From an uncultured Candidatus Saccharibacteria bacterium (GTDB lineage: Bacteria > Patescibacteriota > Minisyncoccia > Phycocordibacterales > Phycocordibacteraceae), in NCBI GenBank assembly GCA_964569655.1, contig CAZMTN010000002.1, positions 134,295 through 198,294 on the forward strand: 64,000 bases of DNA. The letters are read 5' to 3'. Shown here piece by piece: positions 10,390-60,774 of the stretch (positions are counted from its first letter, which is position 1; each line of letters begins with the position of its first letter). The position numbers and the translations under genes are program-made. The notes below the pieces were generated by a model that saw only the letters and a list, made by a program, of their open reading frames with translations, did no database searches and was not told the origin of the DNA.

Positions 10390-10456
10390 TGCCCCAATGA
10401 TACCGCAGGAGCGGGTACCTTGCAGATACCGGGCAAATACATTAGTATGCGGCGAC

Positions 10457-10723: not shown

Positions 10724-10725
10724 GG

Positions 10726-10752
10726 AGAACCGCCCGGAAGGGCGGTTTTGCT
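10726..10752 (+). terminator. rho-independent terminator after rpsT
   Basis: ccgccc-ggaa-gggcgg followed by TTTT. Confidence 0.65.
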
Positions 10753-10769
10753 TTCGCTATACTTACCGC

Positions 10770-11426: not shown

Positions 11427-11514
11427 GGGGTTTTGCTTTCCACCCCTACTTCTATATAGTGCGCGCAGAACGCATCGCATCCGCGGTGCGTGATCTTTAA
11501 CAAAAGGGGACTAC

Positions 11515-12414: not shown

Positions 12415-12426
12415 TGGAGAAAACGT

Positions 12427-13485: not shown

Positions 13486-13493
13486 TGCGTAAA

Positions 13494-13529
13494 GGCCCCG
13501 CTGGTTATCCAGCGGGGCCTCTTTCTTTA
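13494..13529. terminator. bidirectional rho-independent terminator between pyrC (+) and the nucleotidase gene (-)
   Basis: ggccccgctgg-ttatcc-agcggggcc followed by a T tract. Confidence 0.65.
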
Positions 13530-14120: not shown

Positions 14121-14184
14121 TGATGCCTCCTGTTAGCTTGTCCGGACCGACTGTAGCATCGGTCGTACCCGTATTCAAATTATG

Positions 14185-14256
14185 TGCTCCTGGCAGGAAT
14201 CGAACCTGCATCGCCTCCTTCGGAGGGAGGCATCCTATCCATTGAACGACAGGAGC
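14185..14256 (-). tRNA. tRNA-Arg (anticodon CCG)
   Basis: acceptor GCTCCTG/CAGGAGC; anticodon stem-loop CCTCC-CTCCGAA-GGAGG; T-arm GGTTCGATTCC. Confidence 0.75.
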
Positions 14257-14278
14257 GCCCTCACACTCTAAAACAATG

Positions 14279-14350
14279 TGCTCTCGGCAGGAATCGAACC
14301 TGCATTGCCAGCTCCGCAAGCTGGCGTCCTATCCATTGAACGACGAGAGC
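14279..14350 (-). tRNA. tRNA-Arg (anticodon read as GCG)
   Basis: acceptor GCTCTCG/CGAGAGC; anticodon stem-loop CCAGC-TTGCGGA-GCTGG; T-arm GGTTCGATTCC; GCG rather than ACG is unusual. Confidence 0.65.
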
Positions 14351-14366
14351 GTTAGGAATGACTCTA

Positions 14367-14840
14367 CTACAGCTGGAACATCTCGACCAGCCGGTCCACG
14401 ACAGAGACCTCGTGGTTGCCCTCATCGAGGTGGTTGGAGAGGTATTCGTACACGGCCTCGGCGTCCACGCCCGAGAGCGGGATGAGGAGGTGGGGGGACA
14501 GGAGGCTGCGCGTCTTTATGGAGAGGGCAGGGGGGAGCTTCTCGTCCAGGTACTCGAGTACCGAGAAGTGGAGCATGGTGTCGTACGGGTAGAGGCGGTC
14601 GTCTATCTGGAGACCGAGCTCCGTGATCATGAAATGGTGGGTGCGCGAGCGCTTCATCGCCTGGAGCGCGACCGCGACCGCCGCCGAGAGGATGACGAGC
14701 GCGAGGAGGAAGTTGCCGAAGAGGACTGACGCGACGATGCCGGCGAGCGCGATGATGCCGAGCGCCCAATACCAATCGGTGCTTTTCTCGGCGAACTCGT
14801 ATTCAGTTCCAGTCCATTCGAATAACGGGGGGCGCGGCAT
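14367..14840 (-). CDS. hypothetical membrane protein (157 aa, two N-terminal TM helices)
   Basis: ORF only; hydrophobic segments; sits in a tRNA-flanked segment. Confidence 0.5.
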   Translation of the reverse strand: MPRPPLFEWTGTEYEFAEKSTDWYWALGIIALAGIVASVLFGNFLLALVILSAAVAVALQAMKRSRTHHFMITELGLQIDDRLYPYDTMLHFSVLEYLDEKLPPALSIKTRSLLSPHLLIPLSGVDAEAVYEYLSNHLDEGNHEVSVVDRLVEMFQL

Positions 14841-14896
14841 GGCTATACAAAACTATACCACCGCCTGGCGCGCGTGGATTCTTTACCCACCCATAA

Positions 14897-14927
14897 TAAA
14901 AACGCCGGCCCTGGGACCGGCGTTTTC
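14897..14927. terminator. rho-independent terminator (cgccggccc-tggga-ccggcg plus T tract)
   Basis: directly downstream of the minus-strand ORF 14928..15482; also reads as a terminator on the plus strand. Confidence 0.6.
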
Positions 14928-15482
14928 TTAGGTGAGACAGCACGAGGCGATCTGTTCGTTCCTTTTAGAGAACAGATGATTCGGCTCGAAGACCGTGAAC
15001 CAGGCATCCTTTGCTTTCGCTATCGCGATGAGCAGCTCGTGCAGTTCGTCGCGGACGACCATCCGGAATTCGCCGTCCCTGTCTTCGATCGCCACCGCTC
15101 CCGTACTTTGCGCAGCTTTCCGGATATCTGCGATCGCGATCTCGAACATCTCCTTCCGAAGCGTCTCTTTCTGGCGCATCTTCACGCTTAGGCGCCAACT
15201 TAAGAACCGTCCCCTGAGTCCCTTCGGGAAGGGCGCTGTCATCTGGACGTCTACGGTATCGCGCAAGGCCTGATACTGGATGGCATATCGCGTGAGACTG
15301 CCGGTCTCATCGAAGTACCGGATGACCGTCTTGATGCCCGTCCGTGCTGCCACGCCACGAACCGACAGCTCCAGGTTCTCAGCGACCCTCTCATGGCATT
15401 CGCGCAGCCCGGAAGTGAGCGGATCGGGACCGCTCCCTTGGACGTGAAAAAACTCAACCTCTACTATAGGTCTTCTAAGCAT
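14928..15482 (-). CDS. hypothetical protein (184 aa)
   Basis: ORF with a terminator downstream; no recognisable motif. Confidence 0.45.
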   Translation of the reverse strand: MLRRPIVEVEFFHVQGSGPDPLTSGLRECHERVAENLELSVRGVAARTGIKTVIRYFDETGSLTRYAIQYQALRDTVDVQMTAPFPKGLRGRFLSWRLSVKMRQKETLRKEMFEIAIADIRKAAQSTGAVAIEDRDGEFRMVVRDELHELLIAIAKAKDAWFTVFEPNHLFSKRNEQIASCCLT

Positions 15483-15559
15483 CTGAGCCTCCTTTCAGGC
15501 TGGATTGTTCCAATCTGCGCGCACTATGTCATAGCGCTACGGAAAAGGAAATATAGGTG

Positions 15560-15645
15560 CGGAGGAGGTGAGATTCGAACTCACGGTCCCTTGCAGGACT
15601 CCTGTTTTCAAGACAGGCGCGATAGACCAACTCTGCCACTCCTCC
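15560..15645 (-). tRNA. tRNA-Ser (anticodon TGA)
   Basis: acceptor GGAGGAG/CTCCTCC; discriminator G; anticodon loop CTTGAAA; long variable arm; T-arm GAGTTCGAATCTC. Confidence 0.8.
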
Positions 15646-15694
15646 GTGCTCGAGAAGATACCACGTTTTCCGTTATATTTGCTAGGATGCGCCT

Positions 15695-16096
15695 ATGCGC
15701 TATCTCGGCATAGATTACGGCAGCAAGAAGGTCGGCATCGCGCTCTCGGACGAGAGCGGGAGCATGGGCTTCCCGCACGCCATCCTGCCGAACACACCGG
15801 CGCTCCTCGATACGGTGCTCGCGCTTCTCAAAGAGAAGAACGCGGGAGCCGTAGTGATCGGGGAATCGAGGGACCTCGCCGGAAACGACAACCCGATCGC
15901 GAAAGATGCCCGTGCGTTCGGCGACGAGCTGGCGAAGTCGGTCCCCGTCTTCTATGAATCCGAGGTCTTCACCTCGGCAGAGGCACGCCGCATGCACGTG
16001 CCGAGCGAGAAGACCCGCAAACCAGCGAACACCGACGCGGTGGATGCCTCTGCTGCTGCCCTCATCCTTACCAGCTACCTTTCCCGTACCAAGTAA
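15695..16096 (+). CDS. ruvX: putative pre-16S rRNA nuclease / Holliday junction resolvase-like YqgF (RuvX)
   Basis: 133 aa; N-terminal LGIDYGSKKVGIA RNase H-like motif. Confidence 0.75.
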   Translation: MRYLGIDYGSKKVGIALSDESGSMGFPHAILPNTPALLDTVLALLKEKNAGAVVIGESRDLAGNDNPIAKDARAFGDELAKSVPVFYESEVFTSAEARRMHVPSEKTRKPANTDAVDASAAALILTSYLSRTK

Positions 16097-16097
16097 C

Positions 16098-17078
16098 ATG
16101 CCGCCGATCCTCGCTTCGCTCGACGAGCTCAAAAACTTCCTCAAGAGGGCGGCTATCGAGCGCGTCTATGTCGTCACTTCCGAGGAGCTTTCGCGCACGC
16201 TCGCGTGGGCCGTCGCTGAGCTCGGCATAGATGCGGACCATCTGATCCTCATCCCGGACGGGGAACAGGCCAAGCAGTGGGAGGAAGTAGAGAAGCTGCT
16301 CCTGACCTTCAGGGAGAAGGACATCGACCGCGGGTGCGCGGTGCTCGCGCTCGGCGGCGGCACGGTCGGGGATCCGGTCGGCTTCGCCGCATCCATCTAC
16401 TTGCGCGGCGTCCCGTACATCCAGGTCCCCACCACGCTCCTATCCCAGGTAGACAGCGCGCACGGCGGGAAGACCGGCATCAATTTCGCCGGCTACAAGA
16501 ACCAGGTCGGCTCGAACACGCACCCCATCGCGATCGTGCTCGAACCGCGCTTCCTCGCCGCGCTGCCCGAAGCACGCATCGTCGACGGCCTCGGCGAGAT
16601 CGTGAAGGCGGGACTCATCAGCGACACGTCGATACTCAAGGCGCTTTCGCGCATGGAGCGCGGCGCACTCGATTTCCCGCTGCTTATCAGGAAGACTGTC
16701 GCGGTGAAGCGGTGGTACGTGAAGAAGGACCCGGAGGAGACGGGACTCCGCCAGATGCTCAACTTCGGTCATACCGTCGGTCACGCGATCGAGGCGAAGC
16801 ACCACATCACGCACGGTACTGCCGTCATCATCGGCATGCTCGCCGAGCTCAGGGCTACTATCGCCATGGGATACACGAAGCCGGAGGCTCTCGAGAGCCT
16901 CAAGGCGCTTCTGAGCCATCTCGGCATCGAGGCAGATACGACGCTTGTCCCTGACCTGGACGCGATGAAGAAGGACAAGAAGGCGCGCGGCGGCAGTATC
17001 AATCTGCCGGTGGTAGTGCGCCCGGGGAAATCGAAGATCATCCCGGTGCCGATCGCTGATTTTATTACTCACCTATAA
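16098..17078 (+). CDS. aroB: 3-dehydroquinate synthase family sugar-phosphate cyclase (AroB-like)
   Basis: start chosen at MPPILAS (the ORF begins at 15906); GGGTVGD NAD-binding and VPTTLLSQVDSAHGGKTGIN motifs; no other shikimate genes in the window. Confidence 0.6.
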   Translation: MPPILASLDELKNFLKRAAIERVYVVTSEELSRTLAWAVAELGIDADHLILIPDGEQAKQWEEVEKLLLTFREKDIDRGCAVLALGGGTVGDPVGFAASIYLRGVPYIQVPTTLLSQVDSAHGGKTGINFAGYKNQVGSNTHPIAIVLEPRFLAALPEARIVDGLGEIVKAGLISDTSILKALSRMERGALDFPLLIRKTVAVKRWYVKKDPEETGLRQMLNFGHTVGHAIEAKHHITHGTAVIIGMLAELRATIAMGYTKPEALESLKALLSHLGIEADTTLVPDLDAMKKDKKARGGSINLPVVVRPGKSKIIPVPIADFITHL

Positions 17079-17081
17079 CGT

Positions 17082-17420
17082 ATGGATTCTGCCCGCATAA
17101 CCATAGACGATCTCGCAAAGATCGAAGTGAAGATCGGAACGGTGAAGGCCGCGGAGCGCGTCCCGGAGACGGATAAGCTCCTGAAGTGCACCGTCGATTT
17201 CGGGGAAGAGGGCGGCCCGCGCACCATCGTGTCGGGCATCGCGGCCTACGTGGAGCCCGAGAGCCTCGTGGGGCGCCAGCTCGCGTACGTCACTAACCTG
17301 GAGCCGAGGACTATCAAGGGCATCGAGTCGAACGGCATGCTCTTCGCTGTCGGGAACGGCGACACGTTCGCGTTCCTCGCCCCGGACCGCCCGGTTCCTC
17401 CCGGAACCGCTGCGCATTAA
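17082..17420 (+). CDS. csaA: tRNA-binding domain protein (CsaA/Myf/EMAP-II-like OB fold)
   Basis: 112 aa; IEVKIGTVKAAERVPETDKLLKCTVDFGEE characteristic of the tRNA_bind domain. Confidence 0.7.
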   Translation: MDSARITIDDLAKIEVKIGTVKAAERVPETDKLLKCTVDFGEEGGPRTIVSGIAAYVEPESLVGRQLAYVTNLEPRTIKGIESNGMLFAVGNGDTFAFLAPDRPVPPGTAAH

Positions 17421-17457
17421 ATAAAACTTCACGAGAGGAGGCGGTATACTAAGCTGC

Positions 17458-18543
17458 ATGAGCAGCTCGTTCTCGCATTTCGCGAAAGTGCATTTCGCGC
17501 CGCCGGAATACATCTCGATGCCGACGGTGGGCGTTGACATGTCCGCGAGCGGCATCAAGATCGCGGTGCTGAAGGAGCGTCCGGGCGGCCTCGAGCTCGT
17601 CGATTGCGGCGAGGAGCGCCTTCCGAGCGGGTCGTTCGCTTCCGCGGACATCAATGACAGCGCCGCCATCGCCAAAGGCCTCGTCAATATCGCGAAGAAG
17701 CACAATGTGAAGCTCGCGAACATCGCCATGCCGGAATCCCGCACCTATCTCTTCGAGACCGACGTGCCGGGGCACACGCCGAGCGAATGGGCGACCGCGT
17801 TCGAGCAGCGCATCGACGAGTATGTGCCGCTGGCCCCCGCGGAGGTCGCCTTCGACCTCGTCCGCGCTGGCCAGAAGGGAGACCAGACCCATGTGGTGGG
17901 CGTCGGGTACGCGCGCCGCATGATCCAGCAATCGGTCGACGTCTTCAAGGAGGCGGGGATCCAGGTGCGTTCCATCGAGAGCGAGCTGTTCTCTATCCCG
18001 CGCGCGCTCCTGTCTCCTGGAGACCCGTCCACCGTGCTCATCATCGACCTCGGGAAGACCACGACCAAGCTCATGGTGGTCTCGGGCCGCCTCCCGCGCT
18101 ACGCGACGACGCTCGACATCGGCGGGCACGCGCTCACGCTTGCGGTGCAGAAGCACTTCGGCGTCACCGAAGAAGAGGCGAAGCGCGTGAAGGCCGATCG
18201 GGGGCTGGTCGCGTCCGACGACAACAAGGAATACCTCGCCGCCATGATGAGCACCATGTCCGCCATCCGCGAGGAGATCGTCCGGCGCCTCGACTATTGG
18301 CAGACGCGCGCGACGCCGGGCAGCGGGCGCGCTCCGGTGACGCGCGCCATCGTGGTGGGCGGCAACGCATCGCTCAAGGGTCTGCCAGAGTACCTCGCCG
18401 CGGGACTGAAGATCCCGGTGAGCCTCGGCGACGTGTTCACCAACCTTGCGTCCCGCGACGCATGGCTCCCGCCGGTCGATTTCATGGAATCCCTCGCGTA
18501 TCCGACGGCTATCGGCCTCGCGCTCAGACAATATGTCCCTTGA
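17458..18543 (+). CDS. pilM: type IV pilus assembly protein PilM (actin-like ATPase fold)
   Basis: 361 aa; PilM-like and followed by PilN/PilO-like genes with overlapping stop/start codons. Confidence 0.7.
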   Translation: MSSSFSHFAKVHFAPPEYISMPTVGVDMSASGIKIAVLKERPGGLELVDCGEERLPSGSFASADINDSAAIAKGLVNIAKKHNVKLANIAMPESRTYLFETDVPGHTPSEWATAFEQRIDEYVPLAPAEVAFDLVRAGQKGDQTHVVGVGYARRMIQQSVDVFKEAGIQVRSIESELFSIPRALLSPGDPSTVLIIDLGKTTTKLMVVSGRLPRYATTLDIGGHALTLAVQKHFGVTEEEAKRVKADRGLVASDDNKEYLAAMMSTMSAIREEIVRRLDYWQTRATPGSGRAPVTRAIVVGGNASLKGLPEYLAAGLKIPVSLGDVFTNLASRDAWLPPVDFMESLAYPTAIGLALRQYVP

Positions 18544-19093
18544 TGTAATCAACCTATTGCCGACCGAGCTCAAGCGTTCATTCCGCAGAGGCTATTTCCT
18601 GCGCCTCGCCACCGTAGCGGTATTCCTGTTTGCCGCGCTGGTCGTCGTCCACGCGGTGCTCCTGCTCCCGTCCTCCATCTACCTTTCCGTAATACGCGAA
18701 TCAACCGAACGCGAACTCGCTTCGATAAATGCGAGCGCCGCGACGCAATCTTCTGAGACCAGCACGCGGCTGGCGGCACTGAAACAGGAGGCCGTCTATC
18801 TCGCGCGCCTCGGCGATGCGCCCACCGCAAGCGCGGCAGTGCAGGCCATCCTCCTCATCCCGCGTCAGGGCGTCCGCATCACCTCGATCACGTTCGCGCC
18901 GGCGGCGGGAGGCGCCGCCAACGGCGTCATGACGATCACGGGCCGCGCGAATACGCGCGACGCGCTCAGGAACTACAACCTCGCGCTCTCGAACGCGCCG
19001 TTCGTGACCAAGGCGGAACTCCCGATCAGCTCGTACGCTGCGGAGTCGAATATCCCGTTCACCATCACGCTCACCGGAACCCTTAAGCCATGA
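18533..19093 (+). CDS. pilN: type IV pilus assembly protein PilN-like (single TM, periplasmic domain)
   Basis: start at MSLDVINLLPTELK overlapping the pilM stop; N-terminal TM helix; position after pilM. Confidence 0.6.
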   Translation: MSLDVINLLPTELKRSFRRGYFLRLATVAVFLFAALVVVHAVLLLPSSIYLSVIRESTERELASINASAATQSSETSTRLAALKQEAVYLARLGDAPTASAAVQAILLIPRQGVRITSITFAPAAGGAANGVMTITGRANTRDALRNYNLALSNAPFVTKAELPISSYAAESNIPFTITLTGTLKP

Positions 19094-19623
19094 ACCGACC
19101 CGCCATCCATCTCTTCATAGCGCTCGGCATCCTCGCGGCGGCATGCGTCGGCTACGGCGTCGCGTATCACGCGCTCGGAACCCTGAGCGCGTCCGTTGCC
19201 GCGCTCACCGACGAGGTGGCCGCGAAGAAGGAGAGCGCATCGGCTGAGGCGCTTGCTGCTCAGGAGCTCGATCGCCTCGCGCTCGAGGAGATGCGCATCC
19301 GGGACTATTTCGTCGCTCCCGACAATATCGTCTCCTTCCTGGAGACGCTCCAGGCGAAGGGCGTCGCGCTCGGGTCCGTCGTCACCGTCGTCTCCGTCTC
19401 CGCGGTCCCGACGCCGCGCCCTCATCTCGACCTCTCGCTGCGCGTCGACGGGTCCTTCGATGTCGTGATGCGCACCATAGGCTCCATCGAGCACAGCCCG
19501 CACGACATAACGGTGACGAGCCTGGTGCTCGACGTCATCGATACCGAGGCTGCGGATGCGCCGTCTGGCTGGACCGCGACCATGAAGATGGACGTAGGCA
19601 CCGCCACTTCCACCACGCCATGA
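19090..19623 (+). CDS. pilO: type IV pilus assembly protein PilO-like
   Basis: 177 aa; N-terminal TM then coiled-coil; ATGA overlap with pilN. Confidence 0.55.
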   Translation: MNRPAIHLFIALGILAAACVGYGVAYHALGTLSASVAALTDEVAAKKESASAEALAAQELDRLALEEMRIRDYFVAPDNIVSFLETLQAKGVALGSVVTVVSVSAVPTPRPHLDLSLRVDGSFDVVMRTIGSIEHSPHDITVTSLVLDVIDTEAADAPSGWTATMKMDVGTATSTTP

Positions 19624-19916
19624 AATTGACTTCTCTCAGCGGGCTCGACATGAATCGCTTGGAATACGGCGAGCATCTGCGGCCGTTCCGCGACTGGATG
19701 ATCATGCTCGCCGTGTTCGCTGCGCTCCTCCTCATGAGCGCCCTCTGGAGCGCTTGGGTCTTCTATCGCGCATGGACCGGCGAATCGGTCGGCGCGGAGA
19801 CCCCGGCTGCTCCCGTGAAGACAGACGAGATCGAGGCGGTGAAGCGCGTCTTCGAGATCCGCGCGATCGAGGAATCGCGATACGGCGGCGAGTATCACTT
19901 CGTTGACCCCGCATAG
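19620..19916 (+). CDS. small membrane protein, possible pilus biogenesis accessory (PilP-like position)
   Basis: 98 aa; one TM helix; ATGA overlap with pilO. Confidence 0.45.
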   Translation: MKLTSLSGLDMNRLEYGEHLRPFRDWMIMLAVFAALLLMSALWSAWVFYRAWTGESVGAETPAAPVKTDEIEAVKRVFEIRAIEESRYGGEYHFVDPA

Positions 19917-19936
19917 GAGTGCGGTAGGGTAGTAGG

Positions 19937-20008
19937 GCCCCCGTAGCACAATGGATCGTGCAGGAGACTTCTAAGCTCTTGATCTTGGTTCGATTCCAGG
20001 CGGGGGCA
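19937..20008 (+). tRNA. tRNA-Arg (anticodon read as TCT)
   Basis: acceptor GCCCCCG/CGGGGGC; D-arm GCAC...GTGC; anticodon loop CTTCTAA with one stem mismatch; T-arm GGTTCGATTCC. Confidence 0.6.
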
Positions 20009-20018
20009 CAAGCGAAAC

Positions 20019-20100
20019 GGGCACGTGGCGGAACTGGTATACGCGTACGGCTCAGAACCGTATCCCGCAAGGGTTGAGGGTTCGAGTCCCTCCGCGCCCA
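20019..20100 (+). tRNA. tRNA-Leu (anticodon CAG)
   Basis: GTGGCGGAACTGGTATACGCG D-arm typical of tRNA-Leu; anticodon loop CTCAGAA; long variable arm; T-arm GGTTCGAGTCC. Confidence 0.75.
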
Positions 20101-20142
20101 CTCATATAAAGGAAAGAGCGCCCGTTTGGGCGCTCTTTCTCT

Positions 20143-20218
20143 TGGTGCGCGGTGAGGGACTTGAACCCCCGACCTTCTCTGTGTAAAAGAGTTGCTCTAC
20201 CAACTGAGCTAACCGCGC
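20143..20218 (-). tRNA. tRNA-Val (anticodon TAC), CCA encoded
   Basis: acceptor GCGCGGT/ACCGCGC; D-arm GCTCAGTTGGTAGAGC; anticodon loop TTTACAC; T-arm GGTTCAAGTCC; 3' CCA present. Confidence 0.75.
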
Positions 20219-20298
20219 GTCTGAGCAGGGTAACGCATCTTCCGGGTTTTTTGAAGGGGTGCCGCAACCTAGCTCCGGCAGAGGCGGTTCTAACCAAC

Positions 20299-20979
20299 AT
20301 GAACGCTCCTGCATCCATCGGCATCCTCATGGACGGCAATCGCCGCTGGGCGAAGGAGCAGGGACTCTCGGCGTATGAAGGGCATCGCGTCGGCGTAACG
20401 AAGATAAAGGAGGTGATGCGCTGGTCGTGGAAGAGCGGCGTGAAGGAGGTAGTGATCTACGGCTTCTCCACCGAGAACTGGAACCGCGCCCCGGAAGAGG
20501 TGCAGGGCCTCATGCAGCTGTTCGAATACACCTTCGGGGGGCCGGATCTCGAAGAGCTCATCCAGGAGGGCGTGCGCGTGCGGTTCATCGGAGAGCGCAG
20601 CCGCATCCCGGACAGCCTGAAGCGGAAGATGGAGGACGCGGAAATGCGCACTAAGGAACTTCAGAATGGGACGCTCATCGTCGGTCTCTCGTACGGCGGG
20701 CGGGCGGAGATACTCGACGCAGTGAATACTTTGCTCAAAGAAGGGAAGGAGCAGGTGGATGAGGCGGAATTCAAGGACGCGATGTGGAGCCGCGGCACGC
20801 TCGACCCGGACATGGTCATTCGCACGGGCGGAGACAAGCGTCTCTCGAATTTCCTCCCGTGGCAGTCCGTGTACAGCGAGCTCTTCTTCACGGACACGTA
20901 CTGGCCAGCGCTCACCGAAGAGGAGTTCGGCTCCATGCTCCATGACTTCAAGAACCGCGAGCGCCGGCATGGACGCTAG
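20299..20979 (+). CDS. uppS: undecaprenyl/isoprenyl diphosphate synthase (cis-prenyltransferase, UppS family)
   Basis: start at MNAPASIGILMDGNRRWA (the ORF begins inside the tRNA-Val); DGNRRWA and RTGGDKRLSNFLPWQ motifs. Confidence 0.85.
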   Translation: MNAPASIGILMDGNRRWAKEQGLSAYEGHRVGVTKIKEVMRWSWKSGVKEVVIYGFSTENWNRAPEEVQGLMQLFEYTFGGPDLEELIQEGVRVRFIGERSRIPDSLKRKMEDAEMRTKELQNGTLIVGLSYGGRAEILDAVNTLLKEGKEQVDEAEFKDAMWSRGTLDPDMVIRTGGDKRLSNFLPWQSVYSELFFTDTYWPALTEEEFGSMLHDFKNRERRHGR

Positions 20980-21004
20980 TACCTGAAGGAGATAGGGTAG
21001 GGAG

Positions 21005-21727
21005 ATGGAGATTCTCTACGAGGACGACGATATCGTCGCCATCAACAAACCCGCCGGCCTCATGACGCACGGGGACGGTCGCAATGATGTCCGGACCGTC
21101 GCGGACTGGTTCGCGGAAGCGTATCCGGCGTCTAAGGACGTCGGCGAGACGCAGCGCCTTACGGACGGCAGCGAGATTAAGCGCCCAGGCGTGGTGCACC
21201 GCCTCGACACCGATACCTCGGGCGTGCTCGTGCTCGCGAAGACGCAAGAGGCGCACGCGTTCATGAAGGCTGCGTTCCAGGAACGCGAAGCCCGGAAGAC
21301 CTACCTCGCGTTCGTGTACGGTTCGCCGAAGGAGAAGAAGGGGACCATCGATTTCCCGATCGGACGCTCCAAGAAGGATTTCCGCCTCCGCTCCGCGCAG
21401 CCGAAGGCGGGCGGCACGCTCCGCGACGCGGTCACGAAGTTCGAGGTGCTGGGCGACATCGGGACGCACGCGCTCATGAAGGTGATGCCCGAGACCGGGC
21501 GCACCCACCAGATCCGCGTGCACCTCAAAGCCATCCACCACCCGATCGTCGGCGACGTCCTCTACGCTCCGAACCATCCCCGCGATCTCGGCTTCGACCG
21601 CCTCGGCCTCCATGCCTGGCGCCTCGACATCCCGCTCCCGGCAGGCGGCAGGAAGGAGCTCGTGGCCCCGATTCCTGAGGATCTGGCCCTCGCCGGGGCG
21701 CGATTCCCGGGGTTTGCCTCCCTATAG
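21005..21727 (+). CDS. rluD: RluA/RluD-family 23S rRNA pseudouridine synthase (no S4 domain)
   Basis: 240 aa; catalytic HRLDTDTSGVLVLAKT motif. Confidence 0.75.
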   Translation: MEILYEDDDIVAINKPAGLMTHGDGRNDVRTVADWFAEAYPASKDVGETQRLTDGSEIKRPGVVHRLDTDTSGVLVLAKTQEAHAFMKAAFQEREARKTYLAFVYGSPKEKKGTIDFPIGRSKKDFRLRSAQPKAGGTLRDAVTKFEVLGDIGTHALMKVMPETGRTHQIRVHLKAIHHPIVGDVLYAPNHPRDLGFDRLGLHAWRLDIPLPAGGRKELVAPIPEDLALAGARFPGFASL

Positions 21728-21750
21728 GAGGCGTGTTACAGTGGCGCGAC

Positions 21751-22266
21751 ATGCAGGCAGTATTGTCTCCAGTAAAGGTCACTGAACGCGCACAGCTCGG
21801 CATCCGCGCGGGTGATACCGTGCGTGTCGAGCAGAAGATCATCGAGGTGAAGAAGGGCAAGGGCGCGGACAAGAAGGAGAAGATCGTGAAGACCGCCCGC
21901 ACCCAGAACTTCGAAGGCCTCGTCATCGCGGTCAAGCACGGCACGGAAGCCGGGGCTACCTTCACCGTACGCGCGACCCTCTCGGGCATCGGCGTCGAGA
22001 AGATCTTCCCGCTCTATTCTCCGGCCATCGAGTCCATCAAGATCGTCCGTCGCTCCGCCGTCCGCCGCGCGAAGCTCTACTTCATCCGCGAGAAGGCCGC
22101 TAAGGAGGTCCGCCGCCAGCTCCGCAACATGCGCATGGTGAACATCAGCACCGATGAGTCCATCGTCGAGCCGGTAGCCGAGCCAGTCGCTCCGGTAGAG
22201 GAGACCCCGGCAGCAGAACCGGCACCTGAAGAGGTACCGGCTGAGGAGGAGAAGGCGGCGGCGTAA
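21751..22266 (+). CDS. rplS: 50S ribosomal protein L19 with Glu/Pro/Ala-rich C-terminal extension
   Basis: start at MQAVLSPVKV; L19 core (RAGDTVRV...FEGLVIAV...FPLYSPAIESIKIVRR); about 40-aa acidic tail. Confidence 0.8.
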   Translation: MQAVLSPVKVTERAQLGIRAGDTVRVEQKIIEVKKGKGADKKEKIVKTARTQNFEGLVIAVKHGTEAGATFTVRATLSGIGVEKIFPLYSPAIESIKIVRRSAVRRAKLYFIREKAAKEVRRQLRNMRMVNISTDESIVEPVAEPVAPVEETPAAEPAPEEVPAEEEKAAA

Positions 22267-22316
22267 GGCCGCCGCGTGCGTTTTTAGTGAGACGAATGTA
22301 TAGTAGCGGAACACCT

Positions 22317-22403
22317 GCCCAGGTGGCGAAATTGGTAGACGTACTACCTTGAGGTGGTAGCGCCCGCAAGGGCTTGGAGGTTCGAGTCCTCTCCTGGGCA
22401 CCA
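22317..22403 (+). tRNA. tRNA-Leu (anticodon GAG), CCA encoded
   Basis: acceptor GCCCAGG/CCTGGGC; anticodon loop TTGAGGT; long variable arm; T-arm GGTTCGAGTCC; CCA at 22401-22403. Confidence 0.8.
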
Positions 22404-22541
22404 ATGTAAAAGGTCGGGGCACGTAGCGGTGTATACTGTATACGTGCTCGTACGGGAATATTCCCGCTGACGAGGTCAAATAGACCGAAACGGGCAATAG
22501 CAAAGCGCGTCCTCACGGGCGCGCTTTGCTATTATGGATAC

Positions 22542-23099
22542 ATGGCACTCTTCACCGGGAAAGGAGACGGCGGCACGACGAAAGTCATCGATTCGACCGA
22601 GCGCATCTCGAAGGCGTCCGCGATGCCCGAATGCCTCGGCACGCTCGACGAATTGAACTCATTCGTCGGCTTCGCGAAGGTGCGCGCGAATGGAGCCGGA
22701 GACCCGATGATCGGGGAACAGAAGACGTCGGCGATCCTCCATGAGATACAGGAGCAGCTGTTCATCGTGCAGGCGGAAGTAGCGGGGGCGGATAAGCGGA
22801 TAGGGGAGGAGAAGGTAACGTGGGCGAGCACCACGGTGAACGAGATCGAGAAGGTGCTGCCGCCCATCACGAACTTCACTATCTCCGGCGGCACCGAGCT
22901 CTCTGCCATCTTGGACGTCGCCCGCACCATCTCGCGCCGCGCGGAGCGCCGGGTGGTCGGCGTCGAAGACTTAGGGCTCCGGACGCTCTCTCCTGGCACC
23001 AAAGCGTTCATGAATAGGCTGTCCTCGCTCCTGTTCGCTCTCGCGCGTCTCGCGAATACGAGCGCCGGCATCGAGCGCGAGACGCCGTCGTATCGCTAA
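22542..23099 (+). CDS. ATP:cob(I)alamin adenosyltransferase, PduO/MMAB-type
   Basis: 185 aa; N-terminal FTGKGDGGTT...LDELNSFVG signature of the Cob_adeno_trans family. Confidence 0.7.
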   Translation: MALFTGKGDGGTTKVIDSTERISKASAMPECLGTLDELNSFVGFAKVRANGAGDPMIGEQKTSAILHEIQEQLFIVQAEVAGADKRIGEEKVTWASTTVNEIEKVLPPITNFTISGGTELSAILDVARTISRRAERRVVGVEDLGLRTLSPGTKAFMNRLSSLLFALARLANTSAGIERETPSYR

Positions 23100-23141
23100 G
23101 CAAAATCAGCGCATCGTGGTATAACGCACAGGTGCGTGCAT

Positions 23142-23214
23142 GGCGGCCTTAGCTCAATGGTAGAGCCCTGGTTTGTGGTACCAGTGGTTATGGGTTCGAG
23201 TCCCATAGGTCGCC
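23142..23214 (+). tRNA. tRNA-His (anticodon GTG) with encoded G-1
   Basis: extra 5' G pairing with discriminator C; anticodon loop TTGTGGT; T-arm GGTTCGAGTCC. Confidence 0.8.
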
Positions 23215-55670: not shown

Positions 55671-55838
55671 GCACAGATTTTACCATTGTATTCCTCAATC
55701 CGTCGCGCAGCCGCAAGGTTTATTGAAGAATAGCCACTCGCGCATTGGGACACGTTACCCGGGCAATAAAAGACTTGCGTCCGTGATGCGAAAGGACATA
55801 TACTTACGGACAAGTGAGGCAAATTCTTAGAGACAAAT

Positions 55839-56594
55839 ATGGAAAATAAAGGACAGAATAGTGTCTCAAATACAAACTCGAGAGTGAGTTCCGTAGACAG
55901 TTTCGTCCTAGAAAAAGGCATATTCTCCAACATATTCGGAAAGGACATAAAGAGGATTTACATATACAAGAAGGCGGAGCGATTGGCCCGTGCAGTCCAC
56001 CTGGTCGCTCCGGCATTCAGCTACTCGCCGTCCTTGAAGCAGCGTGCGGACGAGCTCGCCATGGCGCTCGTGGATGCGGCCGTCCTTGAGCCCCACGTAG
56101 CTCGCCCGGCGCTCTCTAAGGAACTCCTCTCGCTTTCGAGCCTCCTCTCGATCGCTCGCACCAGTAACCTCCTCTCCCCGATGAATGCGGATCTGATAGC
56201 CAGGGAAGCGCACCTGCTTCTTGAGGAGGTGGCTACCTATGAGGAGCCGCGCGTCTCGTTCGATGCGATGCCTTCGCTCGCGGAGCTCGCGAAATCATCG
56301 CCGAGGAGAGAGGCGGTCGCGTCCAGGACGGAGCCAAAGAAGCCAGCAAAACTCGTCTCGACCCCGTCCATTCCTAAAGGACATCTATCGGACAATCCTC
56401 AGAAGGAAGGGCGGCGAGAGGCGGTGCTCTCCATTCTCAGGTCCAAAGGGCCGTCTCATATAAAGGATATTTCCATGCTGATCCGGGACGTGAGCGAGAA
56501 GACCATCCAGCGCGAACTGCAGGCCCTGGTGGACGAGAGGAGGGTAACTAAGGAAGGGAAGCGTCGCTGGACCAAATATACCCTCGCGGACTAG
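55839..56594 (+). CDS. hypothetical regulator-like protein with C-terminal winged-helix DNA-binding domain (lower-GC island)
   Basis: 251 aa; C-terminal KDISMLIRDVSEKTIQRELQALVDERRV wHTH-like; AT-richer codon usage than neighbours. Confidence 0.45.
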   Translation: MENKGQNSVSNTNSRVSSVDSFVLEKGIFSNIFGKDIKRIYIYKKAERLARAVHLVAPAFSYSPSLKQRADELAMALVDAAVLEPHVARPALSKELLSLSSLLSIARTSNLLSPMNADLIAREAHLLLEEVATYEEPRVSFDAMPSLAELAKSSPRREAVASRTEPKKPAKLVSTPSIPKGHLSDNPQKEGRREAVLSILRSKGPSHIKDISMLIRDVSEKTIQRELQALVDERRVTKEGKRRWTKYTLAD

Positions 56595-57089
56595 CGGTTT
56601 TCCCGCCTAATCGGGGCTCATCTGGCCTTCATGCTGCTGATTGACTAAAGGGCCCAAAAGCTATAGATTTAGCTTGTGGGGAAACAATAGCCATAGGGGA
56701 GGTATGGGACCGGCAACGGTCTCTTCATGCTATATCCCCGGGGCCTGTGTTATCCACATTAAATACGTAAGGAATGGGCGGCTCGTCCGTATACTTACGT
56801 GTACTGACTCGGGGTAAGACCCGATCAGGGGACTTTGAAAACTGAATAGGGAAACTGGTTCAGTCGCGTAAGCAATTACGCGCGTAGCCGTCTACGTAAA
56901 TGGCGGCACATACAGACATGGAAGTCCTCCCAGACACGGATGCATGACCGGACGAACAATTTTGCCAGCTAGCCGATGGGGCGTGAGTCGATAAAGCGTC
57001 CTGTCGGATAGTGTGAAAGTGCGCTTCGTGCGAAACGCAAATTACCACAAAGGGCGTGTGACGGGGCGGCGATTTAGATCGCTCCTCGC
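56595..57089. other. about 495-nt ORF-free, hairpin-rich noncoding region (candidate structured RNA or long 5' leader)
   Basis: no ORF over 80 aa; several GNRA-capped hairpins (gaccg-gcaa-cggtc; gcgtaa-gcaa-ttacgc; cgtag-ccgt-ctacg; gcgat-ttag-atcgc); lower GC. Confidence 0.35.
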
Positions 57090-59009
57090 ATGTCTCTAAC
57101 ATTAATTAACAAAACGATTGTTATGACTAGCTCAAACACAAACGCTGTTGCGAAATTCGCAGCTGTCGTCGCTGGTCTCGGACTCGTAGCTATGTCGTTC
57201 GCTTCTTTTGCTCCGGCAAAGGCAGCAACGCAGGCTGAGCTCGAGGCACAGATCGCGGCCCTCATGGCCCAGATCGCAGCACTCTCAGGCGGATCATCCG
57301 CTTCTATGACCTTCACGATGGATCTCACGATCGGATCGTCAGGCGCAGAAGTAACCGCACTTCAGAACTGGCTTATCAGCAAGGGATACTCGATCCCGGC
57401 AGGCGCAACTGGATACTTCGGTGCCCAGACGCAGGCTGCACTTGCTGCATACCAGGCAGCTAACGGCATCTCACCGGCAGCAGGATACTTTGGCCCGATC
57501 ACTCGCGCTAAGGTAAACGCTTCAGGTGGATCAACCGGCGGCTCGACCGGAGGTTCTACCGGCGGTTCTACCGGCGGCCTCTCAGGCGGCGCAGGTTCTA
57601 TCGACAGCTTCGACGAAATCGGATCTCTCTCTAACGAGCACGTTGGTGAGGACGAAGAGGACGTAGAAGTTGCAGGCCTCGAGATCGAGGTTGACGATGG
57701 ATCTGACATTGAGATCACTGCAGTTCGCCTCGACTTCTCAACCCAGCCTGGAAACGATGATCTCGATGAATTCATCACCGAGGTATCTATCTGGTGCGAC
57801 GGCGAGGAGTTCGCTCGCGTAGATGCAGATGAGTTCAATGATGACAACGACTGGACGAAGACCGTTTCCCTCGACGATGGCTGTGTCATCGATGCAGGTG
57901 ACACGGGCGAGCTCACTGTCGCTGTTAGCGGTGTAAACAACGTTGACACTGGCGATGCAGGTGATGACTGGGGTCTTGATTTCGTAAGCGTCCGCTTTGT
58001 GGATGCTGACGGAGCAACGATCACTGAGACCACCGGCACCGATGAGTTCCTCTTCGATGTCGAGACCTTCGCTGACGCAGCTGACGCTGAGCTCTCTATC
58101 TCTCTCACCGATGGTGACGATGCAGATGACATCAACGATGCTCACGTGATCAACGTTGACGACAACGATGAGACTGAAGCAGATATTCTTGCCTTCACCG
58201 CTGAGGTTGAGGGAGACTCTGACCTCACTGTCGACGATATTGTTGTTGAATTCGTAGTTACGGGCGCAGCAGGTCTTGAGAACATGGCAGCTACTGCCTA
58301 CCTCATGCTTGACGGCGAAGTAGTCGGCGAGGAAAACATCCCTGCTGACGAAACCGTAACCTTCGACGACCTCGATCTTGAACTCGAGGCAGGCGAAGAG
58401 TATGAGTTCACTGTCACCGTAGACCTTCTTGAAGGCCTCACTGACGGCTGGACCATCATGGCAGAAGTCACTGACGATGAGACTGATCTCTGGGACGTTG
58501 AGGATGAGAGTGGTGAGGAGCTTGCAGACGCAGCCAAGACTGGAACTGCTGCAGGTGACGCACATGGCGTCTACGACAGCGGAATCATGGTTGAGTTCGT
58601 CTCAGCTGATGAGAGCGTAACTTCTCCGGAGACCGGAGCAGATCGCGGAACCTTCACCATCGTCTTCGACGTGACGGCATTCGATGCTGACGCATATGTC
58701 GACGCATCTGCGATTACTGATGAGGCTGGAGGCACAACCTACCAGAACATCGTAGTGGACAATGCAGTCGGTACTGGCGTTCTTACATCGAACGCTCCTA
58801 CGGCAGCCAACGACACGTATCGTGTTCGTGAAGACCGCACTGAGCGCTTCACGCTTACGATTAACGCACCGGCTGGTGCCGATGGATTCGTCCGTGCAGC
58901 ACTCGAGAGCGTCCTCTACGCAGCAACTGCTGTTGATGGCGACCTCCTCTACACGTTCGATATGTCTGACTACAAGACGGACAGCGTTTACCTCGACACC
59001 AACGCCTAA
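57090..59009 (+). CDS. secreted acidic surface protein: N-terminal signal/anchor, coiled-coil, PG_binding_1 domain, (GGST)n linker, large Asp/Glu-rich beta region
   Basis: 639 aa (possible start at 57121); PG-binding motif SGAEVTALQNWLISKGY...GYFGAQTQAALAAYQAANGI; very acidic body. Confidence 0.65.
   Translation: MSLTLINKTIVMTSSNTNAVAKFAAVVAGLGLVAMSFASFAPAKAATQAELEAQIAALMAQIAALSGGSSASMTFTMDLTIGSSGAEVTALQNWLISKGYSIPAGATGYFGAQTQAALAAYQAANGISPAAGYFGPITRAKVNASGGSTGGSTGGSTGGSTGGLSGGAGSIDSFDEIGSLSNEHVGEDEEDVEVAGLEIEVDDGSDIEITAVRLDFSTQPGNDDLDEFITEVSIWCDGEEFARVDADEFNDDNDWTKTVSLDDGCVIDAGDTGELTVAVSGVNNVDTGDAGDDWGLDFVSVRFVDADGATITETTGTDEFLFDVETFADAADAELSISLTDGDDADDINDAHVINVDDNDETEADILAFTAEVEGDSDLTVDDIVVEFVVTGAAGLENMAATAYLMLDGEVVGEENIPADETVTFDDLDLELEAGEEYEFTVTVDLLEGLTDGWTIMAEVTDDETDLWDVEDESGEELADAAKTGTAAGDAHGVYDSGIMVEFVSADESVTSPETGADRGTFTIVFDVTAFDADAYVDASAITDEAGGTTYQNIVVDNAVGTGVLTSNAPTAANDTYRVREDRTERFTLTINAPAGADGFVRAALESVLYAATAVDGDLLYTFDMSDYKTDSVYLDTNA
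57531..57590 (+). repeat. in-frame tandem repeat encoding a (GGST)n flexible linker
   Basis: tcaaccggcggctcgaccggaggttctaccggcggttctaccggcggc. Confidence 0.6.
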
Positions 59010-59056
59010 CTCACGTTAAGCGCTGACTGAAGGTAAAACCTGAAAGTTAAGTAAGC

Positions 59057-59086
59057 AAAAACCACCCTTCGGGGTGGTTTTTGCTT
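59057..59086 (+). terminator. rho-independent terminator
   Basis: aaaaaccaccc-ttcg-gggtggttttt. Confidence 0.7.
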
Positions 59087-59205
59087 TGTTGCGCTATCCC
59101 CAATTCCTTATTCAGACGACACGGCAATACCTTAATGGGCAAGTACACTGCAGGAAGGTATGGGATAACGTATTTAATAGTCACTTTACCAATAACTCTA
59201 TAAAC

Positions 59206-60774
59206 ATGAATCAGGTATTTTCATCCCCTGAGCACGCGCGTCGAACTGCGACAACACTGCTTGCAGCAGCGGCACTCTTTGCTCTCGTGCCTTTCACGGC
59301 GTTCGCGGCAGGAGTAATTGAAGACGAAGAAACTGTTGCGAATGTAGCGGCATCTACTATCCCCGCCATTACCTTCGAAGGAGGGGCCGCAGCTACGAAT
59401 GCAACTTCGACGCTTACTGCGGTCACCAAGGCGAATCTCGCCAATGGTGATTACTTTATTATTTCAGATAGCGCACTTGCGGCAGACGCGGTTTGTTTCT
59501 ATTTTGACGTCGATAATACTCTTGCAAATGACGGGGGAACAGCTGCTGCATGTCAGGCAGCAGATGGTGTAGTAGGAGGAGTCGAGGTGAGCGTTAGTGC
59601 GGACACGACGGCGATCGAAGTCGCTGGGCGCATTCATACGGCGATCACCGCGCAGGTCGCGACCCTTCTCGTCACGTCAACGAATAACGGGGACGGCACG
59701 CTTCTCCTGACTGCAGATACTGCAGGCACGGCAGGCAACATCGCGCTGAACGCTAACTACATGACCGAAGCGGTCACAAACGCGGGCTTTACCCTTACAG
59801 CTCTTACGGGCGGGGCAGCAGCGGTAGCAGCAACGGATACCATAGTCATTCCGGCAGGAATCGTTGCCGCTGCGGCAGATCAGTCAATAACGATCGACGG
59901 CGTCGTCATTGCTCTTGGGGCAACCGCTAAGACAGCGGCAGAAGTCGCTGAAGTCATCGCAGACACGGTTCTTACTGGCGGAACGGTATTCGATGTCACT
60001 CCGTACGATATCGTCGATACAGGTGCGTCTCTTACAATCACAAAAAACACTACCGGCACAGGGGGCAATGGCGCACTTACCATTGCGGATGCAAGTTACG
60101 GCGCCAAAGCGCAAGTAGTGACGTTTACCCCGACAGGAGTCAGCGGCAATGAAAGCTTCAAGGTCACTATCAATGGCAATCAATACAATGTAAGAGGCGC
60201 AACAACGGTCCAGGAAGCCGTTGAGGGGCTTGTGGCCGATATGGCAGAAGATGCTGACGTAACGTGTATTGAGGACAACGTTAAGGTCACCTGCACCGCA
60301 GACGTTCCTGGCACAGCGTTCACCTTTGGCGCAGCAACCACAGGATCAAGTAGTGGCGGCGGCGGTGGTGGCGGAAGCTCAGGCAACAACAATGATGATG
60401 ACGAAGATGAGGACGAGGATTCTTCGAACACTGACATGGACGCAGAAATTGAAAAGCTCCTCGCTCAGGTTAAGGCGCTCCAGGCACAGATGCAGGCCGG
60501 AACCACGAACGGTATCGGCGCAGGCGTCTCTGCCTTCGCTCGCGATCTCGACATGGGGGCAACGGGCTCTGACGTCATGGCGCTCCAGGCATACCTCAAC
60601 GCGAAGGGCTTCATGGTCGCAGAGACCGGTCCTGGCTCGAAGGGTATGGAGACCGAGATGTTCGGGGGCCTTACGCAGGCAGCTCTCGCCAAGTTCCAGG
60701 CATCTGTCGGCATTTCGCCGGCAGTCGGGTACTTCGGTCCGAAGACGCGTGCGTACGTCGCAGCCAACCCGTAA
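59206..60774 (+). CDS. secreted surface protein paralog: signal peptide, Ala/Thr/Gly-rich beta region, poly-Gly/acidic linker, coiled-coil, C-terminal PG_binding_1 domain
   Basis: 522 aa from MNQVFSS; C-terminal GSDVMALQAYLNAKGF...GGLTQAALAKFQASVGISPAVGYFGPKTRAYV; same coiled-coil plus PG-binding module as 57090..59009 but at the opposite terminus. Confidence 0.65.
   Translation: MNQVFSSPEHARRTATTLLAAAALFALVPFTAFAAGVIEDEETVANVAASTIPAITFEGGAAATNATSTLTAVTKANLANGDYFIISDSALAADAVCFYFDVDNTLANDGGTAAACQAADGVVGGVEVSVSADTTAIEVAGRIHTAITAQVATLLVTSTNNGDGTLLLTADTAGTAGNIALNANYMTEAVTNAGFTLTALTGGAAAVAATDTIVIPAGIVAAAADQSITIDGVVIALGATAKTAAEVAEVIADTVLTGGTVFDVTPYDIVDTGASLTITKNTTGTGGNGALTIADASYGAKAQVVTFTPTGVSGNESFKVTINGNQYNVRGATTVQEAVEGLVADMAEDADVTCIEDNVKVTCTADVPGTAFTFGAATTGSSSGGGGGGGSSGNNNDDDEDEDEDSSNTDMDAEIEKLLAQVKALQAQMQAGTTNGIGAGVSAFARDLDMGATGSDVMALQAYLNAKGFMVAETGPGSKGMETEMFGGLTQAALAKFQASVGISPAVGYFGPKTRAYVAANP

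Follow-up and report, generated by a model that had tools for sequence, protein, structure and literature searches.

A non-coding gap upstream of a surface-protein gene

On the forward strand of the 64,000-nt stretch of DNA analyzed here (the window; contig CAZMTN010000002.1, from an uncultured member of the Patescibacteria, or candidate phyla radiation, CPR), the gene for a 251-residue protein with a C-terminal winged-helix helix-turn-helix (wHTH) domain is separated by about half a kilobase from the gene for a secreted surface protein with a PG_binding_1 domain. This gap encodes a conserved structured RNA that belongs to no catalogued family. An earlier reading made from the sequence alone (the sequence-only reading) had described it as a region of about 495 nt, free of open reading frames (ORFs), upstream of a gene beginning at 57090. 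The gap is real, but its downstream limit has moved: the surface-protein gene most likely starts at the ATG at 57123, from whose methionine the homologues align, whose context (ATTGTTATG) is conserved and after which a signal peptide follows, and the first ATG of the long ORF, at 57090, is probably not the start. With the gene beginning at 57123, the non-coding span runs from the stop codon of the wHTH gene over positions 56595-57122 and is slightly longer than first described. Its GC content is ~0.51-0.55, and it is not AT-rich.

The absence of a credible ORF on either strand, also part of the sequence-only reading, was borne out. Mechanical translation yields two ORFs in the gap, at 56641-56817 (+, 58 residues, TTG start) and 56860-57102 (-, 80 residues), neither of which has a credible Pfam match. 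Across the 180 nt surrounding the most conserved block (core -60 to +120), a frame stays open in at most 14% of 91 homologous sequences, and in the alignments insertions or deletions of 1-2 nt fall within conserved blocks. A protein-coding gene or pseudogene was rejected on these grounds. A leader peptide was likewise rejected, as the mini-ORF AUGUGCUCCUAA is not kept among relatives and its AUG is changed to ACG, AAG or UUG in several members.

Distribution and synteny

The homologue search began with the 251-residue wHTH protein, which was compared with one representative genome per species and identified 18 Patescibacteria/Paceibacterota loci at 49-59% protein identity. In 17 of these 18, a 47-89-nt stretch of the gap is shared at 75-90% nucleotide identity; the RNA core is thus better conserved than the neighboring protein. 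A metagenome search with a degenerate 30-nt core pattern, blind to synteny, then returned 95 stretches with one copy apiece, and the pattern likewise occurs once in the window. The total set comprises 113 Patescibacteria/Paceibacterota loci, 91 of them unique and with full flanking context. A single match came from IMG/VR (L114, IMGVR_UViG_3300042457_000030, 2645 nt), with the core at the extreme end of the contig; the contig is probably a piece of Paceibacterota DNA that was classed as viral.

In every locus with enough flanking sequence, the wHTH gene lies upstream of the core (83/83 loci) and a homologue of the PG_binding_1 surface protein downstream (84/84). The recurring order is FtsK (-), wHTH (+), a gap of ~500-750 nt and a surface protein of ~620-750 residues (+), with constant orientation and spacing to the downstream gene, and in the aligned gaps conservation spans promoter to start codon. 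Two clades are distinguished by the distance from a GAAUAG block to the core: 42 nt in clade II (26 sequences) and 130-150 nt in clade I (48 sequences, including the window). The sequence-only reading had proposed that conservation and covariation be looked for in related genomes; the region is kept in the 113 related loci, and its helices covary, as described below.

Covariation and the RNA fold

Wide MAFFT alignments gave few or no pairs in RNAalifold, the variable hairpins being misaligned, and were replaced by clade-level alignment and anchor-based swap tests; a brute-force helix search on alignment A2 was swamped by chance G/U-rich helices. For clade II, 59 hand-curated pairs in eight helices were compared with controls in which the partners were slid by 1-3 columns and with shuffles. 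Standard pairs form in 94.1% of cells (40-50% with slid partners), the covariation score is 0.198 against 0.116 in shuffles, none of 500 shuffles reaching it, and 71 cells are changed on both sides, compared with 23.6 in shuffles.

The swap test is free of alignment: a strand located by invariant anchors was paired in RNAduplex with its own partner and with that of another sequence. All seven helices or segments listed with energies in Table 1 favor their own partner, with z of about -6 to -10; these values are uncorrected for phylogeny; the effects are large and in agreement with the slid-partner control. In all, at least nine helices are supported by covariation. The core stem contains invariant U.G and G.U pairs, which would be A.C on the other strand, and the RNA is therefore read from the + strand. 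The gap folds on that strand with a minimum free energy (MFE) of -193.2 kcal/mol (z of -4.45 versus shuffles, compared with -2.33 for the - strand), and the predicted transcript, 56676-57130 (+), reaches z of -5.95. Its first 85 nt fold on their own into helix P1, the P1 extension and the P2 hairpin with its GNRA loop (z of -4.16).

Several pairings were not supported. The spacer between the box and TATACT, defined below, showed no covariation in the swap test (own -5.13, swapped -5.54 kcal/mol). Both a hairpin inside that spacer and a helix 'P3', between the sequence just past the box and that after UAUACU, were rejected for lack of support in the same test. A pseudoknot UAUACUA/UAGUGUG, possible on invariant bases, was rejected because the natural variants UAGCGUG and UAGUAAGG are uncompensated. 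The alternative pairings GUUAUCC/GGGUAGU and GUAC/GUGC fit the few variants seen, the bases being essentially invariant.

Organization of the conserved region

The landmarks follow one another in fixed order: a -35 element TTGACT, 17 nt and a -10 element TAnnnT; GUGG 6 nt further on; GUUAUCCACA after another ~70-100 nt; a 30-34-nt spacer and UAUACU; UUGAnAA and GAAUAG ~45-55 nt beyond; then the core, with the AUG 110-200 nt past it. The upstream promoter, P_A, is of the sigma-70 type and close to consensus; its TTGAC and TAnnnT are kept from locus to locus, and in clade II the -10 element is extended (TGcTAGTAT). The -10 element ends 6 nt before the conserved GTGG, which predicts +1 at about G56676 and a leader of ~447 nt in the window and ~320-570 nt in the family.

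Helix P1 would begin at this 5' end, where GUGG pairs with CCAC of a 9-mer, TTATCCACA (the box). P1 is 98.6% paired in the clade II alignment, and over 76 leaders the thermodynamic ensemble gives the first four nucleotides a probability of 0.14 of being unpaired. The 5' partner strand of the box differs between members through G.U changes and displaced bulges; the box does not. P1 is a plain hairpin lacking P2 in L019 and L026, and in some lineages P2 is replaced by a longer hairpin with no U-tract; where present, P2 is flanked by an A-tract and a U-tract that pair together with some covariation (helix 2). Further downstream, compensatory changes also occur in the clade II counterpart of the 56804-56828 hairpin (helices 4 and 5), which is 94-96% paired. 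At the position of the central multi-helix domain, between GAAUAG and AUCAA, clade II has a single strongly covarying hairpin (helix 7), in which five of the seven pairs have changed in a compensatory way, each in 4-14 sequences.

The region around the start codon is open and contains no Shine-Dalgarno sequence. Its predicted unpaired probability from -20 to +6 is 0.58, compared with 0.34 for the rest of the leader, and it is the more open part in 97% of the 76 leaders. A weak hairpin or palindrome lies here (UAACAA 57107-57112/UUGUUA 57118-57123), and the context with the conserved AUUGUUAUG occurs nowhere else in the window. A perfect 12-bp palindrome, TAACAATTGTTA, overlaps the start codon in clade II, and its counterpart in the window is TAACAA-N5-TTGTTA.

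Table 1 Features of the locus. Swap-test energies (kcal/mol) are given as own versus swapped partner, with the standard deviation (s.d.) of swapped means in parentheses.
Feature	Position	Strand	Basis or remark	Swap test
Gene for 251-residue protein, C-terminal wHTH	55839-56594	+	Weak wHTH matches	
Promoter P_A: -35 TTGACT 56641-56646, 17-nt spacer, -10 TAGATT 56664-56669	56641-56669	+	Promoter scan and conservation	
5' domain from predicted +1	56676-56758	+	Helix P1, 56676-56686/56748-56757	
P1 extension	56690-56706/56726-56744	+	Swap test	-7.24 vs -5.44 (0.27)
P2 hairpin GACCG-GCAA-CGGUC	56707-56722	+	P2 and its A/U extension covary	
Hairpin 1, gaccg-GCAA-cggtc	56708-56721	+	P2; covarying family helix	
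Invariant GTTATCCACA	56749-56758	+	3' strand of P1; invariant in alignments A1-A3; holds the 9-mer 56750-56758	
Box-TATACT spacer	56759-56789	+	30-34 nt in family, variable sequence, no covariation	
Invariant TATACT	56790-56795	+	At least 90% conserved	
Segment TATACT-UUGA				-15.06 vs -12.91 (0.24; z -8.8)
Hairpin CUGA.UCGGG/CCCGA UCAG	56804-56828	+	MFE; in covarying TATACT-UUGAnA stretch	
Central multi-helix domain	56829-56928	+	MFE; closing helix 56829-56836/56921-56928	
TTGAAAA and GAATAG of central domain	56835-56841, 56844-56849	+	Conserved	
Hairpin of central domain	56841-56847/56858-56864	+	MFE	
Ma hairpin	56865-56871/56876-56882	+	MFE and swap test	-8.19 vs -3.41 (0.55)
Hairpin 2, gcgtaa-GCAA-ttacgc	56866-56881	+	Ma; covarying family helix	
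Hairpin 3, cgtag-ccgt-ctacg	56883-56896	+	Not part of conserved fold	
Mb hairpin GCCGUC/GGCGGC	56887-56892/56902-56907	+	MFE and swap test	-10.18 vs -8.61 (0.26)
Core, most conserved block	56960-57019	+	Nearly invariant 60-nt hairpin at 56964-57019; flanks UUGCCAGCUA, UAGUGUGAAAG	
Core stem, 12 bp, CCGAUGGGGCGU/GCGUCCUGUCGG	56973-56984/56996-57007	+	98.2% paired	-19.2 vs -14.6 (0.70)
Core loop with invariant GUCGAUA	56985-56995	+		
Position of variable-length hairpin, then conserved ATTAC 57041-57045	57020-57051	+	Alignment A1; swap test in clade I	-13.33 vs -6.76 (0.63)
Long 3' hairpin of clade I	57052-57061/57086-57095 and 57063-57069/57079-57085	+	MFE and swap test	-23.21 vs -17.17 (0.72)
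Hairpin 4, gcgat-ttag-atcgc	57069-57082	+	Tip of covarying 3' hairpin	
AU-rich start region with conserved AUUGUUAUG; start codon 57123-57125	57096-57125	+		
Gene for secreted PG_binding_1 surface protein, acidic Ig-like C-terminal part	57123-59009	+	Pfam PG_binding_1, E = 6.8e-12	

The four perfect hairpins from which the sequence-only reading had proposed a structured RNA are all present where it placed them, and three of them (1, 2 and 4) coincide with covarying helices. The third does not belong to the conserved fold: it competes with the family-supported helix Mb, whose 5' strand is the conserved CCGUCU. Capping by GNRA loops, which that reading saw in two of the four, is less general than it implied: it is a family feature in hairpin 1 only, and there in about half of members (33 of the 68 cases detected, mostly GAAA). 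The family loop of hairpin 2 is GUAAGAA rather than a GNRA sequence, and in the window GCAA caps it on a lengthened stem.

Searches against known RNAs

Using Rfam 15 at gathering thresholds, we identified nine tRNAs elsewhere in the window and nothing in the gap. At E <= 10, positions 56400-57300 gave two chance matches to long non-coding RNAs (11-14 bits), and ten diverse family members searched at E <= 1 gave nothing relevant. The families for which no covariance model matched include RNase P, tmRNA, signal recognition particle (SRP) RNA, 6S RNA, the known riboswitches, the lysM and M23 motifs, and OLE, GOLLD, ROOL, HEARO and raiA. ARAGORN found no tRNA or tmRNA in 56000-57600, and our literature search found no description of this RNA. 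The sequence-only reading had tried the RNase P, tmRNA, SRP and riboswitch consensus sequences by eye without a fit, and had suggested an undescribed class for which an Rfam scan should be run; Rfam 15 and ARAGORN agree with it on both points.

RNase P RNA is recognized by its P4 helix, formed by CR-I (GGAAAGUCCGG) and CR-V (ACAGAAnCCGGCUUA), together with motifs of the specificity domain. By eye, GCCGAUGG...GUGAAAG in the core resembles J11/12-J12/13 in the specificity domain of Escherichia coli M1 RNA. We rejected this identity because no model scores and because the GCCGAUGG block varies (CCCAUGG in clade II) and forms one strand of the 12-bp stem. The nine tRNA genes of the window lie within 7520-23214, with clusters at 14.2-15.6 kb and 19.9-20.2 kb that hold several of them; the window contains no gene for rRNA, RNase P RNA, tmRNA or SRP RNA.

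Neighboring genes and genomic context

The wHTH protein has only weak matches (HVO_A0261_N, the Csa3 HTH and GlpR), and searches of structure databases and NCBIfam likewise gave only weak HTH matches. Its promoter (~55770-55838, and the same region in 76 loci) reads TTGC(A/G)N-17-TATACT, with exact TATACT in 69 of 76. Downstream of it there are often (T)GTCC, inverted repeats such as TGTCCTTGA..TCAAGGACA and several AGGACA repeats; the region looks like an autoregulatory operator. The words TATACT and GTCC/GGAC of this promoter recur in the surface-protein leader. About 1 kb upstream of the gap, gene orientation changes between FtsK (-) and the wHTH gene (+).

The downstream product probably serves these ultra-small cells as their main envelope protein. 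After its gene, 59010-60774 holds a second secreted protein with a C-terminal PG_binding_1 domain, preceded by an AT-rich gap (GC ~0.43-0.47); the GTG start listed for it (59074) is probably too early, the signal peptide beginning ~44 codons later. Among L001, L005, L007, L014 and L015, several genome contigs end within or just past the locus, which suggests that the surface-protein gene is a frequent break point of assemblies, possibly owing to repeats or strain variation. Two large contigs, of 525 and 640 kb, have the locus within 3-18 kb of their start. The metagenome-assembled genomes of L002, L006, L010, L014 and L018 carry a Paceibacterota-type locus and are titled 'Candidatus Saccharibacteria' or 'Bacillota'; these labels look loose or wrong.

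A cis-acting leader as the favored interpretation

We consider it probable, if well short of certain, that the RNA represents a new family confined to a Paceibacterota lineage of the Patescibacteria, and that it is the long structured 5' leader, acting in cis, of an mRNA that encodes a peptidoglycan-anchored surface protein. The sequence-only reading had left the choice between a long leader of the downstream gene and an independent non-coding RNA (ncRNA) open. Strict synteny, conservation that extends to the start codon and the near-absence of terminators before the ATG (a terminator-like site between core and ATG in 3 of 86 sequences) favor the leader. In the family consensus, the stretch from core to ATG shows no conserved promoter.

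In the mechanism we propose, the whole region would be transcribed as one RNA with the gene and would act in cis. Its compact fold and 5'-terminal helix would guard the message against decay starting at that end, which would permit very high expression of a major envelope protein. The paired 5' end, the open start region and the lack of a Shine-Dalgarno sequence are the layout of stabilizing leaders of the slpA type rather than that of a riboswitch of the terminator or Shine-Dalgarno-sequestering type. The invariant unpaired blocks (the GUCGAUA loop, UUGCCAACUA/UAGUGUGAAAG, GAAUAG and UAUACU) would be contact sites for a trans factor, either a protein, possibly that of the neighboring wHTH gene, or a ligand, that would tune stability or translation.

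Several points weigh against this interpretation. The +1, co-transcription with the gene and the effect on stability are all deduced from sequence. Thermodynamic support for P1 is moderate, with a mean pair probability of 0.47. The U-tract after P2 (five or more U within the following 8 nt in 80% of simple cases; four in the window) could end transcripts early by attenuation. The invariance of many unpaired blocks far exceeds what a stabilizing leader needs, and the GUCGAUA loop, UUGCCAACUA, UAGUGUGAAAG, GAAUAG and GCUAUAUACU point to a specific partner or to tertiary contacts. The remaining two points concern the box. Lineages that lack the 5' strand of P1 still keep it, and the module of box, spacer and TATACT looks like promoter architecture, so that control at the DNA level may account for some of the 'leader', and the start of the mRNA may lie further downstream.

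The box, the spacer and TATACT

The box is a perfect DnaA-box 9-mer that doubles as a strand of P1. It is the only perfect copy in the window, with no one-mismatch boxes nearby, and is intact in 89 of the 91 unique sequences, the two exceptions altering position 1 or 9. The flanking G varies, and the boundary of invariance is therefore that of the 9-mer. In L038, L096 and L113, and in L078, the -10 element is fused to GTTATCCACA; here the 5' strand of P1 and P2 are absent and the box is kept at the predicted transcription start. Unlike every flanking segment, the box-TATACT spacer combines a fixed length with a free sequence and no covariation. In L051, TATAAT takes the place of TATACT at the leader position. 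The spacer pattern, the TATACT of the wHTH promoter and the TATAAT of L051 suggest that the leader TATACT may be the -10 element of an internal, activator-dependent promoter, or else a protein site; it could be either a single-stranded RNA motif or such a -10 element.

A composite control region built on this promoter is possible, although we think it the less probable account. TATACT would be the -10 element of a second, internal promoter that has no -35 element and is activated or gated by a protein, DnaA or the wHTH protein, bound ~48 bp upstream at the 9-mer. The mRNA would start ~7-9 nt past TATACT with a leader of ~320 nt, and the first 85 nt would be a separate P_A transcript. This account overlaps the leader interpretation and does not exclude it. 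It would explain a spacer of 30-34 nt that is fixed in length and variable in sequence with no covariation; nevertheless, its 5-nt range is loose for an activator-dependent promoter, and there is no -35-like conservation whatever. Past TATACT, 7-8 variable nucleotides precede a helix, the same layout as at P_A, and the wHTH promoter (TTGC(A/G)N-17-TATACT, exact in 69/76 loci, often followed by GTCC) and L051 point in the same direction, as do the uncompensated variants of UAGUGUG, the candidate RNA partner of this motif. The invariant block matches the DnaA-box consensus and persists at the transcription start in lineages lacking the 5' strand of P1, but there is a single box, and the 9-mer consensus may not be that of the host DnaA. 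Two observations speak for the box as RNA: covariation of the P1 extension means that P_A transcripts do reach it, and a T-to-C change in the box of L020 turns a G.U into a G-C, as an RNA pair predicts.

Ligand sensing, independent RNA and DNA-level alternatives

The riboswitch that the sequence-only reading had offered as one form of leader is, in our view, unlikely. On this account, the core and its junctions would be a ligand-sensing riboswitch or a protein-binding aptamer, the signal being perhaps a cell-wall or second-messenger molecule, and translation or decay would be controlled by alternative pairing of the repeated invariant blocks ACUUUGAUAA and ACUUGAUUAU versus AUCAA, and of GUAC versus GUGC. 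Many invariant nucleotides in loops and junctions do surround covarying helices, and duplicated complementary blocks could pair alternatively, but the candidate alternative pairings all lie on invariant bases and have no covariation support. The downstream gene is of a peptidoglycan-binding envelope class that is also preceded by c-di-AMP riboswitches and by lysM and M23 motifs (PMC5737381), yet no known riboswitch model matches and the element is several times the size of a typical aptamer. Nor is an expression platform apparent: a terminator before the ATG is limited to 3 of 86 sequences, the leader offers no Shine-Dalgarno sequence for sequestration, and in 97% of leaders the start region is predicted to be open.

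Still less likely is an independent trans-acting or housekeeping ncRNA, made as one or two RNAs and merely located upstream of the surface-protein gene. Its size, modular helices and invariance resemble those of large bacterial ncRNAs, and it has a strong promoter of its own; against this stand the absolute linkage to the same downstream gene (84/84) at constant orientation and spacing, conservation that reaches the start codon, and the lack of a terminator after the core or of a conserved core-ATG promoter in the consensus. The terminator-like P2 could give rise to a small RNA of ~55-60 nt, but the 3' strand of P1 lies past that point, and the P1 extension covaries.

A replication origin, operator cluster or degraded gene, acting at the DNA level only, is highly improbable: the perfect DnaA box, the switch of gene orientation from FtsK to the wHTH gene ~1 kb upstream, and the palindrome at the start codon would suit it, but the compensatory changes and the G.U pairs specific to one strand can be accounted for only by an RNA, no frame is kept among relatives, and an origin was rejected because there is a single box, no reversal of cumulative GC skew in the window and a GC content of ~0.51-0.55 rather than an AT-rich gap.

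Implications

The Patescibacteria make up a huge and almost uncultured share of bacterial diversity, and their gene regulation is hardly known; apart from lysM-TM7, our literature search found no lineage-specific structured RNA for them. With more than 110 examples, 91 of them unique with full context, the RNA makes a clean candidate for addition to Rfam as a new family. For a bacterial mRNA, a covariation-backed leader that exceeds 300 nt and holds many invariant junctions is unusually elaborate, and here a defined RNA, a promoter, a neighboring regulator gene and a DnaA-box-like site stand together before the probable main envelope gene, which offers a concrete handle on envelope biogenesis and mRNA stability in the CPR. 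As no more than a stabilizing leader, it would be a modest if useful addition; binding of a ligand or protein by the invariant blocks would make it a new class of regulatory RNA. The most far-reaching possibility, which we hold to be rather unlikely, is an as yet undescribed, CPR-specific class of large, tertiary-structured regulatory RNA that binds a dedicated factor or metabolite to set the output of the main surface protein, on DNA that also bears a functional DnaA box and an internal promoter and so couples envelope synthesis to the replication cycle. In that case, the same sequence would serve as a helix in the RNA and as an operator in the DNA.

Comparison with known systems

The closest parallels are the stabilizing leaders of envelope-protein mRNAs, among which is the structured 5' untranslated region (UTR) of E. 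coli ompA. S-layer slpA mRNAs, such as that of Lactobacillus acidophilus, have long half-lives of ~14-15 min, attributed to the structure of the 5' UTR (PMC3666127). The likeness lies in a long leader, the gene of an abundant envelope protein and a stem at or near the 5' end; here, the helix starts at the predicted +1, giving a 5'-terminal stem with little overhang (P1 98.6% paired; unpaired probability of 0.14 for nucleotides 1-4). The conserved promoter, the absence of a terminator before the gene and the strict synteny are compatible with co-transcription with the surface-protein gene. The present leader differs in being three to four times longer, with many helices and a lineage-wide sequence conservation that includes invariant loops and junctions; no sequence or model similarity was found, and stabilization is here predicted by analogy.

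Large structured ncRNAs of bacteria such as OLE, GOLLD, ROOL, HEARO and raiA, all of them Rfam families, share with this RNA a length of several hundred nucleotides, many covarying helices, conserved junction nucleotides and a narrow phylogenetic range. It differs from them in matching no covariance model and in being tied to one downstream gene, apparently as part of its mRNA. Promoters controlled by DnaA boxes are known from dnaA autoregulation and from the DnaA regulons of E. coli and Bacillus subtilis, and resemble the present locus in having a perfect TTATCCACA near promoters, which in some lineages overlaps the transcription start. At this locus, however, the 9-mer is also an RNA helix strand in most lineages, and there is a single putative box.

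Cis-acting RNAs are also found in 5' UTRs of cell-wall and peptidoglycan-binding genes, namely the lysM-TM7, lysM-Actino, lysM-Prevotella and M23 motifs and the c-di-AMP (ydaO) riboswitch, and lysM-TM7 occurs in the CPR phylum TM7 (PMC5737381). They are candidate or proven cis-regulators before the same class of gene, one of them in the CPR. In contrast to the more than 300 nt seen here, those motifs are small; the domain encoded downstream of the present RNA is PG_binding_1, not LysM or M23, and the RNA has no Rfam score with any of them.

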